From the sequence record OV696614: a stretch of 64,000 nt of DNA; one strand, written 5' to 3'. The position numbers and the translations under genes are program-made. Origin of the DNA: Escherichia phage Cyrano. Every line of letters starts with the position of its first letter. Position 1 is the first letter of the stretch. The notes beneath the pieces were generated by a model, which did no database searches, was not told the origin of the DNA, and was given only the letters and a program-made list of their open reading frames with translations. This document shows positions 14,726-40,241 of this stretch, one piece after another.

Positions 14726-15001
14726 ATGAGAGTTTTAGTTCGAATCGTTACCAGCACTGTCTATGACGTGTTTCCGGTTTTTATGGTCAAAGCCGATGGC
14801 CTTAACGACGAAGAAACTGACGCGCTGATCCAGCGTATTCTCGTTGAATATACAGGTCATGACGCTGATTCAGTGATGGTTGATGATGATGGTGTTTGTT
14901 GGCATAACGGCAACTGTTGGTACGTAGAAGAGACTCAACAAATCAGTGATGAAGATGCCGAACATCTTGAGCGTATTTTAAGCATCAGCACTTTTGAGTG
15001 A
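14726..15001 (+). CDS. hypothetical acidic protein
   Basis: 91-codon ORF preceded by the AGGAAAAACACATG start context seen at many genes in this window. Confidence 0.45.
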   Translation: MRVLVRIVTSTVYDVFPVFMVKADGLNDEETDALIQRILVEYTGHDADSVMVDDDGVCWHNGNCWYVEETQQISDEDAEHLERILSISTFE

Positions 15002-15039
15002 GTTTACAGTAAAATTTATATAAGTTAGTATCTACCTAT

Positions 15040-15219
15040 CATGAAGATTTTTATTGAATACTTGTTACTCATCGTTTCAATAGCTTTTGTCATCGACTGC
15101 ATTTTCACTGGTGTCATTCGTAAAGTCTTTTCCCCGGTGCACGACGTAGTCATAAACGCTTTGGCTATCGTGCTCGTATTTAATTCAGCATTTGATGTAA
15201 TCAAAGAGGTGGCAGCATG
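15040..15219 (+). CDS. small hydrophobic protein (not in supplied ORF track)
   Basis: 59-codon ORF read from the sequence (MKIFIEYLLLIVSIAFVIDCIFTGV...); stop overlaps the ATG of the next gene (ATGA). Confidence 0.3.
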
Positions 15220-15552
15220 AAGGCCATCCCATTCGCGCTGTTGTTCCTTTCTTCGATCGTTGTGGCCGACACCACTGTTTATCAGTGTGAAATGTCTGTA
15301 GCCGACGTTAAGAATGGCGCTCTTACCGACGTCATAAAAGCACCATATGGAGCGATGGTCGTAGACAGCGGCGACCAGTTCTATGTTGTGCGTGACGATC
15401 GAGTGTTGTCATCCCCATATCTCACAAATCGTAATGGCAAATTAACCGGCGTCGGAGAAGACCACTTCGTATACAACAAATACAAGGGCTTCTATGGCGT
15501 TCACGCTTCTCAGCAAAGCTACCTTTTCGATGACTGCAAGGAGGTTGGATAA
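15217..15552 (+). CDS. secreted hypothetical protein
   Basis: N-terminal signal-peptide-like segment MKAIPFALLFLSSIVVA; start overlaps upstream stop. Confidence 0.45.
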   Translation: MKAIPFALLFLSSIVVADTTVYQCEMSVADVKNGALTDVIKAPYGAMVVDSGDQFYVVRDDRVLSSPYLTNRNGKLTGVGEDHFVYNKYKGFYGVHASQQSYLFDDCKEVG

Positions 15553-15764
15553 TGGCATTAACACTGGCAGGTCTGGAAATCGAGAAAACAAGCGGCTACT
15601 GGCGTGCCAAGGGTTTCAAGCAACCTGGCATTCTTGAGCGTCTGGAACGTGAAGATGGGTATATCGTCCACCAGCGGCGTGAATGGCGTATGTACAATCC
15701 AGAAACAGGAAAACTGACTACAAAAGCCGGAACACTTTGGGGTCTGTTGAAGAAAATACACTAA
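15552..15764 (+). CDS. hypothetical protein
   Basis: 70-codon ORF coupled to the upstream gene (ATAATG overlap). Confidence 0.4.
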   Translation: MALTLAGLEIEKTSGYWRAKGFKQPGILERLEREDGYIVHQRREWRMYNPETGKLTTKAGTLWGLLKKIH

Positions 15765-15773
15765 TAGCACCAA

Positions 15774-16250
15774 CCACTGCGGTGAGTAGTCTGCTCACCG
15801 CATTCGTATCCAGCTCATTATCCACTGTAGTCAGTAACAAAACCTTCCTACATATCTGCTAACCACTGTAGCGAGTAGACAGCCTTTCATTCGCATCAAA
15901 CAACCACTATGGTGAGTATTGGAGTGAGATGTCCAGCGGGTATCCACTATGGTGAGTAAGCCTTTGCTGTTTTCAGTGGATATCCACTCGCCACAGTGGA
16001 TACGCTCAAAGATGAGGGCGACAACAACCACTATAGACAGTAAATTTTCCAAGATACCCAGTGACCACTAACCTCGCAGCCCTTGTTTCATCAGTGTTAG
16101 TGATCACTAACATTTAATTCAGTATTTGCATTCTACTGCCTACAGTGGTTATCAACAGATAACGATACTCACTATAGTGGATAGCGAATTACAGATATAA
16201 GTAAGGCTCACTACAGTGGATAGTGAGCCTTACTACTAACTACAGTGGTT
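15774..16250. repeat. iteron array downstream of repA (incA-like), about 11 copies in both orientations
   Basis: Repeated core CCACT(A/G)T(A/G)G / CTA(T/C)AGTGGATA, e.g. CCACTATGGTGAGTA, CCACTGTAGCGAGTAG, CACTATAGTGGATAG, CACTACAGTGGATAGTG, plus the palindrome CCACTCGCCACAGTGG. Confidence 0.7.
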
Positions 16251-16253
16251 GGG

Positions 16254-17309
16254 CTATTTGCGAGTCTTTGCCTTGCGCAACTCTTCGAGAAGCGCCAGTT
16301 CTTCTTTACTCAACATGACCATTTTGCCTTCTTTTTCGTCAGGCACAACGTCGATAATGTCATCTTGATTCTCATCTGGGAGGCTATATTCCGTCTCATC
16401 ATTATCGATTTTTGTTGATATTTGTGCCTGGCGTAACTTTGGCCGCCTATAGTGGATGACGAAGTAGACCGAGTTTCCGCGCTTAACTTCCGTGTAATCG
16501 AGATATCCTATCTCTCGCAGCTGTTCCATAGCCTTTCTTACCGTCGCATTCTGAGTAATAGTGCGACTTGTCAGATTAAGTCTGGCGCGTAAACGGGCTA
16601 GTGATATTGGTGCCGGATCAGGCGGCAAACTTTCAATAAAAGTATAAAGCGCCTGAGCGGATTCTTTTCTTGAGAGTTCGTTTATAGCCCGGAGTTGCAG
16701 AAGAACCTTTTTGTCGAACTGGTAGAGTTCGAAAATCTTGGGATCTGCTTTCAGTTCGACCGTATCGTGCTTGACACTATATTTTGCCGTTTGCACAAGA
16801 TGCGTTACGTAAAACTCATCAGAGCCTTTGCTACGGAACGAGATGGTATTTGTGGCAATACGGCTTAGCGAACTGTCCAGGCGTTTGCGTAACTTCGCTG
16901 ATGACCTGGCGGTCGGAATGCCACACAGCCTTACAAACTCAACGAACGGCAACGTGACAGTATCGCCAACGACCTTGTGTTTGGCAAACGCGTGGATTAT
17001 TCCCACCCACGTTTTAAAGTCGTTATCCATATCAAGCCGAAGGCCAGAGATCCTTATGTCTTCGTACCCTTCGGCTTTTGCCAGAGACAGCTGTTTGAGT
17101 TCAGCAGAGGCATCCATAGAGACCATTTGCCCCTTTCTTCCTCTGGATGTCGATTTCAGCGTCGGAACGAAGAGGCCCAGACGCATCAAAGCAACAGGCT
17201 GAACAGTGTTATTAGTGTTAGGAACCAACGTAACAACTTCGCCTGTCTTTTTATCTGTTTCTGAAAATGCTTCAACGATCGCTATGTTTTTATTGCCGTT
17301 TTCGCTCAT
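16254..17309 (-). CDS. repA: iteron-binding replication initiator (RepA/Rep_3-like)
   Basis: 351 aa flanked on both sides by iteron arrays; C-terminal half has a winged-helix-like pattern typical of Rep_3 initiators (…ALYTFIESL…[12 protein letters not shown]…[19 protein letters not shown]…). Confidence 0.65.
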
Positions 17310-17355
17310 TCCAAATGTCTCTTGTTATTCGACGGCTTTGGTGGCCTTTGCTGAT

Positions 17356-17473
17356 TACAGTGGATAGTAGCACTCATCACAGCGGTTATCCTACCGTCTA
17401 TAGTGGTTTTTCTCCTCTCTATAGTGGTTGCTTTGCTCCCTATAGTGGATTATTCGCTCTCTATAGTGGATAT
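17356..17473. repeat. iteron array upstream of repA (incC-like), 22-bp periodicity
   Basis: CTATAGTGG repeated four times at 20-22 bp spacing (17397-17473) plus two degenerate copies (TTACAGTGGATAG, CACAGCGGTTATC). Confidence 0.7.
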
Positions 17474-17474
17474 C

Positions 17475-17966
17475 GATCATGTCTGAAGGCAGATGGCACA
17501 ACGGTTTGAGGTGGGCGGGGATCTTATTGGGTCTTTATGGGTCTCTTTGGTTCTCTTTGTGATCTGAATTACTGGATCGGGCCTGTGGATAAAAATCAGA
17601 GGATTTCAAGAACAGGTAACTCTACTCTTCTGTGGATATTTAAGGACATAAGAATCATGACTAAGAGTAGAGTTTAAAATATATCTATGTATATCAGTAT
17701 GTTAATGAAGAATTAAGTCATTAAGTTATCCATAAAAGACAATGTGCTCTACTCTCTACAGTGGATATATACAGCTCTCCAGAGTGGTTGTTTTACTCTT
17801 CATAGCGGTTATTCAGCTCTCTACAGAGGTTTCTTTGCTCTCCATAGTGGATGGCAACACCCTTTCAGACCAGTAACCGCAACGGCTAGAGGCGATCGGG
17901 GATCTCTTTGGATCTTCTATTTGATCTTACTTGGGATCTCTTATTTGGATCTATCCAGTGGATAAC
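17475..17966. promoter_or_regulatory. origin-like region: DnaA boxes, AT-rich segment, second degenerate iteron set and GATC clusters
   Basis: Perfect DnaA box TGTGGATAA at 17585-17593 and near-matches at 17631, 17726 and 17958; degenerate 21-22 bp iterons at 17744-17870; six GATC sites within 17894-17951; a related degenerate block at 17510-17578. Confidence 0.55.
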
Positions 17967-18052
17967 TGGGATAAGTAAAACAGGCAAATGCAGATTAAGG
18001 TATGCCTAATGAGTTATCGTAGCATCGGCCAATAACTACTGAAAAAACGATT

Positions 18053-18697
18053 ATGGATCTAAAACGCACGCGCTGGGTTCGTCGTCTTGAGGACGGCTCC
18101 TACACTATCGAATCAAATTCCAACCTGAATAAGCAGAAGTTACTTTGTGATATCTGCGGTATAGCGGCGAAGTGCCCGATCTACGAAACCAGAATTAAAC
18201 TTGATAAGGCTGGTGTGAACTTTCATTTGAATAGTTGTATCAGGTACGTTCCATTGCTCGCATTTCGTAAACCGATCATCGGATTGGATGCGCCCTACTT
18301 CAACACACTCCGTTCAGGAGTAACGTGGCGAGATCGTTTAACACCAGACAAACTGATTTGCCTTGTATCCGCAGATACAGGAAAAATCATTCGTTTTGGG
18401 AAAGTAGACAAGGTTTACTCAGGCCCAGTTGACGAGATGTTGCGGAAACACAGCCGGTTTAATCACCTCTGCATGGGTGGTGAGAAAATCGAGAAGGTTG
18501 AAGAAGTGATCCGCAAATCCTACGGACACTTCCTGACCAAAGATAGCCTGCTCACTGCAATCTACATCAGACATGTAAAACGTGAGTTCGACCTTGAATA
18601 CCATAGCGAAGAAGAACTGAACCTTGTCGATCCACGTCCTAAAGCTGGCGTCATAAGCATAAATGCAGCGCGTAAAAAGCCCACTGACGCGCTGTAA
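18053..18697 (+). CDS. hypothetical protein
   Basis: 214-codon ORF next to the origin region; no recognisable motif. Confidence 0.45.
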   Translation: MDLKRTRWVRRLEDGSYTIESNSNLNKQKLLCDICGIAAKCPIYETRIKLDKAGVNFHLNSCIRYVPLLAFRKPIIGLDAPYFNTLRSGVTWRDRLTPDKLICLVSADTGKIIRFGKVDKVYSGPVDEMLRKHSRFNHLCMGGEKIEKVEEVIRKSYGHFLTKDSLLTAIYIRHVKREFDLEYHSEEELNLVDPRPKAGVISINAARKKPTDAL

Positions 18698-33087: not shown

Positions 33088-33681
33088 ATGATTGCAGCCG
33101 AAAAAATCAAACAGCGAAAGCGCGACAACTCTCTTCGTGACCTCTGGAGAACACCTGACTGGCTGTTTTCTGCCATTCAACGTTATCTTGGAGTGACATT
33201 TGATGTTGACGTTGCCTGCAACAAGGACAATGCGAAGCTGCCTAATTTCATAGGCGTTGAGCGTGATGCTTTGAAATCTGAATGGGGACAGCCAGGTACA
33301 ATTGCCTTCCTCAATCCACCCTACTCCAAAATCTCCCCCTGGATTGATGCGGCTATACGTGAGCAGGCTCGCGGAGTTACAACAGTGATGCTAATTCCTC
33401 AATCCCTCGATACAAAGTGGTATGAGCGTGCAACAGAGTGTGCGAATGAGACGATTATTCTGTCTGGTGGCCGCGTAGCGTTTGTCGAGCCTGACGTCAA
33501 TTTGGGTCAGGTAGAAGTAAACATCAACCCCGGTGGCAGTATGCTCGTTGTTTTTCGAGGATTCTGTCAGGACGCTGGGCACTCTATAAGCAAGATCCCT
33601 TTGGACGTCATGAAAAGTCTGGGAGGGTATGATCCTGCGAATGTGATCAGGAAAAAAAGACCATCAAAGAAGGCTGCTTAG
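33088..33681 (+). CDS. phage-type DNA N6-adenine methyltransferase (Dam family)
   Basis: Catalytic motif NPPYS (AFLNPPYSKISPWI) in a ~200-aa protein with WRTPDWLF N-terminal block, typical of the small phage Dam family. Confidence 0.75.
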   Translation: MIAAEKIKQRKRDNSLRDLWRTPDWLFSAIQRYLGVTFDVDVACNKDNAKLPNFIGVERDALKSEWGQPGTIAFLNPPYSKISPWIDAAIREQARGVTTVMLIPQSLDTKWYERATECANETIILSGGRVAFVEPDVNLGQVEVNINPGGSMLVVFRGFCQDAGHSISKIPLDVMKSLGGYDPANVIRKKRPSKKAA

Positions 33682-38555: not shown

Positions 38556-40241
38556 ATGAATACAGCCCTTTCCATCATCGACGATGCCAACTCAAACACT
38601 GCTATCGACTATCGGCAGGAAATGAACGTCATCCACGAAATTGTGGCCGAGTGCGAGAAAGAGATCGCTTTCATGTACCAGGTTCACGACTTCGTTTATG
38701 GCGACGAACGCCACAACATGATTAATCGCCTGCTGCAACTGAACCACCGACCAGATGAAGAACGCTCACGTTTGAATCGAGCTTGGCTGGATAAAGTCGA
38801 TCTGGAATGGGTGAAACAGAATATTTGGGCCGAGTACTGGAGGAAGGTCACGGACATGACTAACGTTTTGCTGATCATGCCAGCTTCCCGTCGAGATGAG
38901 TGGCGCGAGCAGTTTATAGAGGGCAAACAGGAAGTCATCAAAACTGACAGAACCGGCTACCAGATGAAGGTTAAAGAGTTCGTTGGTGTACCGGAGTTCA
39001 AAGCAGAAACGGTCATACCCACGATGCTTAATTTGCTGAATGACAGGCACAAATATCTCTCTGAGCGCGTGTATGGCTTGTTTAAGGCGCTGAGTCCTGC
39101 GCACAAGACAAATAAGACAAACGGTTTCAGCGAGCGGCTGATAATCGCTGACTGCATTTCTGATTTCTGGCGGGACAGCGTTAGCGTGAACTATCGCAAA
39201 GAGGACTACATCGACGATCTGCGTGTCTTGCTTCATTTCTTCGCGCACAAAGAATTTATTACCATCAACCGCACTGCTGAGGTGCTATCAGCTGCGTATC
39301 GGGCAAACGACTGCCAGACCGGTGACTGGATGAACGTCGATGGAAATCTGATGCGCGTGAAGATGTTCAAGAACGGCAACGTTCACTTTGAAATACATCC
39401 TGACGTGGCCTGGAAGTTGAATGAGGTGCTGGCTTACAGTATGCCTGCTGCAATTCCCGCGCCATGCCGAACTGCGCCAAAAACACGGGCACCAAAGCAG
39501 TTCGGGTTAATCCAGAAGACGATCTCCGTGCCGGTTCGCACTGCGCTTCGTGACGGGCGATTGAGCAAAGACAAAGGCGTATGGTACTTCTCTGATTCAG
39601 CTCTCCAGAAGTCGCAGGTGGAAGAGCTTGAGCGCACACTGAGCTTCATTGGCGGCGTGCAGGAGAAAAAGCACTGGCAGTTCCCGTATGACATCGGCCA
39701 TACGCTAAATACGATTGTGGCTACCGGTTTAATACCGGATACAAAATCACACCAGTTCTACCCTACCCCACGCTTGATTGCTGAGTACGTTGCCAGAGCC
39801 ACTGAATTGAAGCCTGGTGAGAAGCTGCTTGAGCCTCAAGCCGGACGTGGGGATCTTCTGGCCTATATTAACGCCGATCTGGAAGATGTTACCTGCATAG
39901 AAATCGCACCTCTCTTCGCTGATATCCTGCGTGGAAAAGGGTATACGAACACGATTTGCTGCGACTTCATAAAGTGGTCTGAGGACAACGCAGGTTATCA
40001 GTTCGACAAAATCGTTATGAACCCGCCGTACTCGCTTGGTCGTCATAGAGAGCACACGCTGGCTGCGCTGGGGCATCTGAAAGTCGGCGGGCGTCTTGTA
40101 GCAGTATTGCCGGGCACTGCGCCAATCCTGAGCTGGATGACGATGGATAATTACGTTTATGCCAAAGGGAAGTCGTTTACCAACGAGTTTGAAGATACCG
40201 GGATCACAGTCAGCGTATACGTTTTCAAACGCGTTAAATGA
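38556..40241 (+). CDS. putative N6-adenine DNA methyltransferase with large N-terminal domain of unknown function
   Basis: C-terminal region has an AdoMet-binding-like LEPQAGRGDL followed by catalytic NPPYS (IVMNPPYSLGR); N-terminal ~400 aa unassigned. Confidence 0.5.
   Translation: MNTALSIIDDANSNTAIDYRQEMNVIHEIVAECEKEIAFMYQVHDFVYGDERHNMINRLLQLNHRPDEERSRLNRAWLDKVDLEWVKQNIWAEYWRKVTDMTNVLLIMPASRRDEWREQFIEGKQEVIKTDRTGYQMKVKEFVGVPEFKAETVIPTMLNLLNDRHKYLSERVYGLFKALSPAHKTNKTNGFSERLIIADCISDFWRDSVSVNYRKEDYIDDLRVLLHFFAHKEFITINRTAEVLSAAYRANDCQTGDWMNVDGNLMRVKMFKNGNVHFEIHPDVAWKLNEVLAYSMPAAIPAPCRTAPKTRAPKQFGLIQKTISVPVRTALRDGRLSKDKGVWYFSDSALQKSQVEELERTLSFIGGVQEKKHWQFPYDIGHTLNTIVATGLIPDTKSHQFYPTPRLIAEYVARATELKPGEKLLEPQAGRGDLLAYINADLEDVTCIEIAPLFADILRGKGYTNTICCDFIKWSEDNAGYQFDKIVMNPPYSLGRHREHTLAALGHLKVGGRLVAVLPGTAPILSWMTMDNYVYAKGKSFTNEFEDTGITVSVYVFKRVK

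Follow-up and report, generated by a model that had tools for sequence, protein, structure and literature searches.

Escherichia phage Cyrano (sequence record OV696614) carries, within the stretch of 64,000 nucleotides analysed here (hereafter the window), a replication gene embedded in arrays of short repeats or iterons. The gene, repA, occupies positions 16254-17309 on the minus strand and encodes a protein of 351 amino acids (aa), a predicted Rep_3 initiator with two winged-helix domains (WH1 and WH2) and an acidic, helical C-terminal tail (aa 293-351). Downstream of it lies an array of 12 iterons, and upstream there are two tandem modules, which we call M1 (proximal to the gene, 17347-17592) and M2 (distal, 17748-17974), each of them combining iterons with Dam methylation sites and with boxes for the host protein DnaA. 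An original prediction, made from the letters of the window, had described an arrangement of iterons, repA and iterons, and this layout is real: its features are found at, or within a few bases of, the positions first given for them, and above what chance would produce.

RepA and the element that carries it

The Pfam profiles Rep3_N (WH1; 42.2 bits against a cut-off of 22.4, E = 1.3e-10) and Rep3_C (WH2; 22.6 bits against a cut-off of 21.1, E = 1.3e-4) both match the protein, as does phrog_775 (E = 6.8e-146). Its identity amounts to 49% over 267 aa with RepA of phage P1 (E = 5e-93), 60% with the classical RepFIB RepA, C-terminal tail included (E = 3e-144), 69% each with the RepA proteins of a Pantoea agglomerans plasmid and of a Moellerella phage-plasmid, and 91% with those of Salmonella phage SSU5 and of the Yersinia pestis plasmid pMT1 (91.7% for the latter). 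On the strength of these matches, RepA is to be regarded as a Rep_3 winged-helix initiator and a true homologue of P1 RepA, and it is RepFIB rather than P1 that, going by the identity of the initiators, stands as the closest characterised replicon.

Judging from its sequence, the locus is very probably the plasmid-maintenance replicon of a phage-plasmid of the SSU5/pHCM2 group, an iteron-controlled theta replicon of the RepFIB/P1 RepA family. This group of phage-plasmids was described by Pfeifer et al. (PMC7969092). Membership of the Cyrano element is apparent both from nucleotide identity and from gene order around the replicon: SSU5 is 83% identical over 2.05 kilobases (kb) and has a common gene order on both flanks (an SPFH protein, a 214-aa open reading frame (ORF), a metallophosphoesterase and an AAA ATPase), and pMT1, together with relatives from Salmonella, Enterobacter and Citrobacter, is ~81% identical to the region. 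Many plasmids of 107-126 kb from E. coli and E. albertii contain the 2.35-kb region at 100% identity; in these, repA is annotated and the replicon is typed as IncFIB by MOB-suite. We take pHCM2-type IncFIB to be the PlasmidFinder name for the replicon of SSU5, pHCM2 and pMT1. The replicon itself is already known and routine, with repA annotated in hundreds of deposited plasmids. Its origin is without annotation in every record inspected, and the origin stretch, found in 91 of 5,426 complete E. coli genomes, is plasmid-borne and unannotated in every case. The one experimental hint, an indirect one, comes from pMT1: the table in PMC6199537 lists, under Ni et al. 2008, that the cloned replicon displaces pMT1 by incompatibility.

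Two tandem origin modules upstream of repA

The iterons were scored with a position weight matrix, whose consensus reads TATCCACTGTAGTGAGTA and covers ~19-20 nucleotides (nt) per site. At 14.8 bits or more the matrix yields 24 sites, all of them in 15771-17853, the best site elsewhere in the window scoring 14.4 bits. Twelve of these iterons are located downstream of repA, one within the gene, and six and five in two phased arrays upstream. With up to one mismatch allowed, 23 copies of the core CTAYAGTGGWT are present in the 64 kb versus 2.6 expected, a number reached by none of 100 shuffles, and 19 of the 23 matches fall within 15820-17852.

The two upstream arrays belong to M1 and M2, direct repeats with an offset of 373-381 base pairs (bp) and ~65% identity over 225 bp. 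Read toward repA, each module is composed of a DnaA box, a series of heptamers ~11 bp apart, a GC-rich spacer and the iterons; Dam heptamers with a period of ~11 bp and DnaA boxes beyond the origin iterons are thus present twice. A duplication had already been proposed in the original prediction, and it stands, with its boundaries redrawn from 17356-17578 to 17347-17592 and from 17744-17951 to 17748-17974.

Six direct repeats, with 21-22 bp spacing, make up the iterons of M1 (17347-17472, minus strand), which end 38 bp upstream of the repA ATG. A replicon of this type calls for about five direct-repeat iterons of ~19 bp at such a spacing immediately upstream of repA, and six are found; this region is expected to be the repA operator region. 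The heptamers of M1 (17517-17579, minus strand) read CGATCCA, AGATCAC, AGAACCA, AGACCCA, AGACCCA and AGATCCC, so that the block holds three Dam sites (17520, 17561 and 17575), and three of its heptamers (AGAACCA, AGACCCA and AGACCCA) are not GATC heptamers. A further GATC at 17475 marks the junction with the first M1 iteron (ATGATCGATATCCAC). This junction GATC recurs in origins of Rahnella, Erwiniaceae, Buttiauxella and Pantoea, and in those of RepFIB and IncFIB(K), and is absent in P1. The module begins with a perfect DnaA box, TTATCCACA (17584-17592, minus strand), one of three perfect boxes in 64 kb and the one that had been predicted.

In M2, five iterons (17748-17853, minus strand) follow each other with 21-23 bp spacing and score 27.7, 14.8, 20.0, 14.9 and 24.7 bits. 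The second iteron set had been called degenerate at first; it does exist, but it is only moderately weaker, with two of the five copies at ~15 bits and the rest at 20-28. The heptamers of this module (17890-17952, minus strand) contain six Dam sites (17894, 17901, 17911, 17923, 17935 and 17948). The six GATC span 58 bp (17894-17951), as predicted, and this is the only spot of the window with at least four GATC in 58 bp (Poisson P ~2e-7 per position, ~0.015 over the whole window). Both of the GATC-rich duplicated blocks that had been proposed exist, but the proximal one has only its three GATC plus the one at the junction. Two tandem DnaA boxes (17957-17974, minus strand) belong to the module, TTATCCACT at 17957-17965 and the degenerate TTATCCCAG at 17966-17974, and the whole distal block reads TTATCCCAG-TTATCCACT-GGAT-AGATCCA-..-AGATCCC-..-AGATCAA-..-AGATCCA-..-AGATCCC-CGATCG.

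Between the modules extends a spacer (17596-17747) that is AT-rich, as had been noticed at first, with 28% GC at 17600-17745 versus 46% for the whole window. It holds 8-of-9 matches to the DnaA box at 17631 (minus strand) and 17726 (plus strand). The best sigma-70-like match of the region (TTAACA-16-TATATT, 10/12, from 17705 to 17678 on the minus strand) is located in the spacer too, directed toward M1 and repA; neither SSU5 and pMT1 nor the other relatives have this promoter-like site, which is specific to Cyrano's E. coli lineage. Another promoter-like match (9/12, from 17476 to 17449) falls in the first two M1 iterons, and its -10 element is not conserved in SSU5 and pMT1.

Conservation of the modules

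An alignment of the window with SSU5 and pMT1, and with one plasmid each from Salmonella, Enterobacter and E. coli (the last 77% identical), shows both modules present and collinear in all of these relatives. As a neutral yardstick we took the four-fold degenerate sites of repA, which show 64% identity between the window and pMT1 (154 sites). The inter-module spacer, at 62-64% identity to the relatives, equals this value and so evolves neutrally. The modules lie above it. In M1, the DnaA box has 94% identity to the relatives, the heptamers are 94-95% identical across SSU5, pMT1, Salmonella and Enterobacter, with the three non-GATC heptamers invariant too, and the iterons reach ~89%. In M2, the iterons show ~85% identity, the weaker copies being kept in their weak form, and the GATC block 79%; within this block, six lineages agree in every one of the 24 GATC columns and in 25 of the 39 other columns (Fisher p = 0.0005). 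The main DnaA boxes read TTATCCAC- in Cyrano and TTATACACA and TTATTCACA in the relatives, whose M1 box TTATACACA still fits the consensus TTWTNCACA. This pattern of conservation indicates that both modules are under purifying selection.

A doubled origin throughout the clade

For a wider view, we took one genome per species and collected 80 loci encoding RepA relatives, scored their upstream sequences with the iteron matrix and inspected representatives by eye. A two-module group emerged (loci L015-L068), with RepA proteins 62-91% identical to the query and, in the members inspected by eye, the iteron core CCACTRTAG. Modules were counted in the 52 loci of this group with at least 900 bp of upstream sequence, and two iteron arrays precede repA in 47 of them. 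The genera represented are Kluyvera, Buttiauxella, Yersinia, Rahnella, Phytobacter, Erwinia, Pantoea, Franconibacter, Cedecea, Scandinavium and Xenorhabdus, among others, and the clade covers phage-plasmids (SSU5 and pHCM2), pMT1, and large plasmids of Pantoea, Rahnella and Erwinia. A sister group of 26 loci (Pantoea, RepA 65-68% identical, core GTTCACTRTA) has a single module, like P1.

The two copies do not fare alike. Between five and seven GATC precede the distal array in all 47 loci, whereas the proximal array is preceded by none in six loci, one or two in five, three in six, and four or five in thirty. Among surviving proximal heptamers, numbers three and four typically lack GATC: GAACC or GACCC in Rahnella, Erwiniaceae and the Cyrano lineage, and GTTCC in Pantoea. 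In Phytobacter, Franconibacter, Scandinavium and Entomohabitans the M1 heptamer block is wholly lost, with repA and both arrays kept, and in the Cyrano lineage, Pantoea, Rahnella and Cedecea both modules keep DnaA box, heptamers and phased iterons. The doubling is old, clade-wide and maintained by selection, not private to the Cyrano element, and it is asymmetric: the distal block of Dam sites is never lost, while the proximal block repeatedly decays or disappears.

The 225-bp modules of six genera, 57-68% identical in every pairing, gave a tree with poorly resolved branching; there is a hint in it of a group of five proximal modules, which falls short of proving a single duplication. The phage-plasmid pNX2019-MW3 of Moellerella wisconsensis (locus L013, 2343-2700) shows one DnaA/GATC block, four iterons, a DnaA box, four further iterons and repA, an intermediate arrangement that could have arisen by collapse of a two-module origin.

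Comparison with known replicons

The replicon of SSU5, pHCM2 and pMT1 is the same as that of Cyrano, with an origin region 80-83% identical and the same modules, iterons and gene neighbourhood; one difference lies in the inter-module spacer, which in the Cyrano lineage has diverged and become more AT-rich. RepFIB (of the P307/F/ColV type, here pO104_H21) shares the order of a DnaA box, five GATC heptamers, a GC spacer, five iterons and repA, and also has downstream iterons in both orientations, but its origin module is single and its iterons, of the ATAAGCTGTAG type, are unrelated.

With P1, the likeness extends to the DNA of the origin. The tandem DnaA boxes, Dam heptamers and GC spacer of M2 align almost base for base with P1 oriR, the string TTATCCACTGGATAGATCCAA being identical in both, and the aligned stretch is annotated in the P1 record as a DnaA binding site and Dam methylation sites 1-5. 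In P1, according to its annotation, five incC iterons containing the repA promoter come next, then repA, then nine incA iterons. The P1-like reading first proposed is in this respect well founded, since RepA is a homologue, M2 aligns with oriR and the layout matches incC-repA-incA. P1 differs in having one module, extra DnaA boxes between iterons and repA, iterons of another sequence (GATGTGTGCTGGAGGGA), a RepA without the N- and C-terminal extensions of the Cyrano protein, and a par operon (parA-parB-parS) directly after incA; no such operon is present directly beyond the downstream array of the Cyrano element.

The same DnaA/GATC block stands before the iterons in SJ46 (p0111 type), in phage-plasmids of the Klebsiella pKPHS1 type and of E. 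coli O169, and in RepFIB, pSLT-type and IncFIB(K) plasmids, each type with its own unrelated iterons. The loci of P1, SJ46, the pKPHS1 type, RepFIB, the pSLT type and IncFIB(K) have a single origin module, versus two here, and this tandem doubling sets the clade apart from the single-origin architecture of P1 and RepFIB. As far as sequence can tell, the locus has all that defines a RepFIB/P1-type iteron replicon, and the second module is a difference in architecture that does not exclude it from the type. A link between the C-terminal tail of RepA and the doubled origin was considered and dropped: a similar tail goes with a single module in RepFIB and in the Klebsiella type.

In other plasmids, too, a single initiator serves two or more iteron clusters or origins, as in RK2 (oriV), R6K (alpha, beta and gamma) and F (oriV and oriS), where the additional clusters adjust copy number or work over a distance. 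These serve as analogies, with no sequence relationship to the Cyrano replicon, where the entire origin module, and not its iterons alone, is repeated in tandem.

The iterons of some related elements are hidden in their gene annotation. In the Klebsiella and E. coli O169 phage-plasmids, the annotated initiator ('RepB family', 405 aa) starts inside the origin iterons (loci L008, 1252-2469, and L009, 1273-2487), and its N-terminus, MLSAVNDMLSAVRYMLPTV..., is a translated iteron array; the real start is probably an ATG ~40 codons downstream (MSTKNKK...).

How the two modules may work

In P1 and RepFIB, through the work of the Chattoraj, Austin and Bergquist laboratories, RepA monomers are known to bind the phased iterons and DnaA the flanking boxes, upon which the heptamer block melts; firing needs Dam methylation, SeqA holds the hemimethylated origin inactive, RepA bound to the gene-proximal iterons represses repA, and the downstream array lowers copy number. 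By analogy, in the Cyrano replicon RepA monomers on the iterons, together with host DnaA, would open a heptamer block. Full Dam methylation would be required for firing, with the hemimethylated origin sequestered afterwards. RepA on the array beside its gene would repress repA, and the 12 downstream iterons would restrain copy number by titrating RepA and by pairing with the origin (handcuffing).

How these jobs would be shared between the modules is a matter on which we lean, tentatively, toward a division of labour. M2 would be the main opening site, timed by methylation, and M1 chiefly the repA operator and a partner for control and pairing, which in the Cyrano lineage may still fire. M2 is favoured as the opening site because the distal heptamers are universally kept and the proximal ones dispensable in several lineages. 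As for its history, it is conceivable, at a similarly guarded level, that one old duplication split the tasks of the origin, with opening, timed by methylation and aided by DnaA, going to the distal copy and autoregulation and pairing to the proximal one, and that the arrangement was then kept clade-wide.

Several points weigh against this interpretation. What we say of autonomous replication, of the need for Dam and DnaA, of the repA promoter and of where initiation occurs is carried over from homologous replicons, and the promoter scan returned weak or non-conserved sites only. The module tree does not establish orthology of the proximal copies across genera. Furthermore, M1 is the more conserved of the two modules in the SSU5/pHCM2/pMT1 lineage, has the only perfect DnaA box of the modules and occupies the position of the single origin of P1, all of which argues against demoting it to an operator.

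These same features of M1 suggest another explanation, which we consider somewhat less likely: that M1 is the sole working origin, as in P1, and M2 a non-initiating control locus in cis, which would titrate RepA and offer it an extra pairing partner, would also titrate DnaA and SeqA, and so would tighten control of copy number and timing. M1 is placed as the single origins of RepFIB and the pKPHS1 type are, its six iterons score higher and its heptamers show the highest conservation, and two of the five M2 iterons are weak. Yet the lineages that have lost the M1 heptamers (Phytobacter, Franconibacter, Scandinavium and Entomohabitans) still keep repA and both arrays, so that M1 cannot be the opening site there, and a mere iteron sink would not need six invariant Dam sites and kept DnaA boxes.

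It is a little less probable again that both modules are working origins, either redundant or used according to condition (host, Dam level, plasmid versus lytic state). The completeness of both in the Cyrano lineage, Pantoea, Rahnella and Cedecea, and their conservation above the neutral rate, would fit such an arrangement, but the fewer Dam sites of the proximal heptamers and their repeated loss suggest that they are dispensable for opening.

A very improbable explanation makes M2 an inert relic, left when a replicon cassette was replaced beside a conserved backbone. Phage-plasmids of the pKPHS1 and PhiR41 types (RepA ~50% identical) match the window only from 17883 onward, that is, over the GATC/DnaA block of M2 and the flank leading to a conserved 214-aa gene, as such a replacement would leave it. 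We dropped this idea, since the M2 iterons belong to the same family as those of the resident RepA and are conserved well above the neutral sites, and since two modules also occur on non-phage plasmids of Pantoea, Rahnella and Erwinia without that backbone. Finally, that the locus is no replicon at all, its protein being a transcription factor or recombinase and its repeats operators, is hardly credible: winged-helix proteins can be regulators and searches of PDB sequences and NCBIfam with RepA gave no match, but the homology to the experimentally defined initiators of P1 and RepFIB is strong, the DNA is homologous to P1 oriR, the replicon types as IncFIB, and repA is the sole Rep gene annotated in the inspected, window-covered parts of an identical plasmid.

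The downstream array

The 12 iterons downstream of repA (15771-16251), of ~20 nt each and scoring 18-27 bits with the matrix, form a second array of the incA type, with six copies per orientation: those at 15771, 15819, 15860, 15901, 15941 and 16025 on the plus strand, and those at 15963, 15983, 16132, 16164, 16203 and 16232 on the minus strand. Relatives have 14-15 such iterons, and the changes are insertions and deletions of whole units, a variation consistent with the role of a control array. The array abuts convergent small ORFs (15217-15764; phrog_2077 and phrog_804). An Rfam search of 15000-18600 at E <= 1 gave no match, and hence no hint of a regulatory RNA.

In the middle of the array there are two palindromic boxes that are not iterons, AGTGACCACTAAC and GTTAGTGATCACTAAC (16061-16111), the latter with a central GATC. 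They are kept in SSU5, pMT1, Rahnella and one Pantoea plasmid, and also in the Klebsiella pKPHS1-type element, whose iterons are unrelated. Because of this last case they are probably not RepA sites, and their sequence probably serves as the binding site for something else; since the region is a convergent intergenic gap, they are not an obvious operator either.

The single site inside repA (16439-16458, minus strand, 20.7 bits) coincides with the codons for IHYRRP in the 3' part of the gene, uses the rare Arg codon AGG and falls at the point that in P1 separates the end of RepA from the start of incA. Besides the SSU5/pMT1 lineage, a few others retain it. As a conserved thirteenth control iteron it was nevertheless discarded, given that Pantoea, Rahnella and others use other codons there, and it is possibly a by-product of the coding sequence.

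The methylase and other genes of the element

The element also encodes its own Dam-like methylase, as had been noticed at first: a Dam-family N6-adenine methyltransferase of 197 aa (33088-33681, plus strand; Pfam PF05869, E = 2.5e-38), annotated 'phage N-6-adenine-methyltransferase' in an identical plasmid. It could methylate the GATC sites of the origin. The identical plasmid CP088831 has the hallmark genes of the group (DnaE, NrdAB, ThyA, dihydrofolate reductase and the methylase), and the window encodes DnaE, NrdA/NrdB, thymidylate synthase and dihydrofolate reductase as well, with coordinates mapped from CP088831. A DUF4942 protein of 561 aa is found at 38556-40241 (plus strand). Two ParB/Srx-domain proteins are encoded near 61.1-62.5 kb (coordinates mapped from the annotation of the identical plasmid), and no ParA-type partition gene adjoins the replicon.

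Directly beside the distal origin block, the 214-aa ORF (18053-18697, plus strand) belongs to phrog_2105, has a cysteine-rich N-terminal part and gave no Pfam match. It adjoins the distal block in SSU5, in the Salmonella and Enterobacter relatives and in the 77%-identical E. coli one, and it keeps this place in the E. coli O169 and Klebsiella types as well, independently of the type of RepA and of iterons present; in one inspected pMT1 record, the gene is not listed beside the origin.

Significance

Full-text literature searches returned no description of the doubled origin; an earlier one is possible, and the novelty of the doubling is provisional. For specialists in plasmid replication the doubling is a tidy natural experiment, unsurprising in kind, and it offers a natural system of an iteron replicon that uses two complete origin modules under one initiator. 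It is also of use for annotation, where the origin is unmarked and the iterons of some relatives have been absorbed into an over-long 'RepB family' ORF. In biological terms, the doubled origin bears on how copy number is set in phage-plasmids of the SSU5/pHCM2/pMT1 type, elements that include the virulence plasmid pMT1 of Yersinia pestis and carriers of resistance genes. If the interpretation proposed here is true, the second module would be a working and so far undescribed part of the P1/RepFIB-type replicon.

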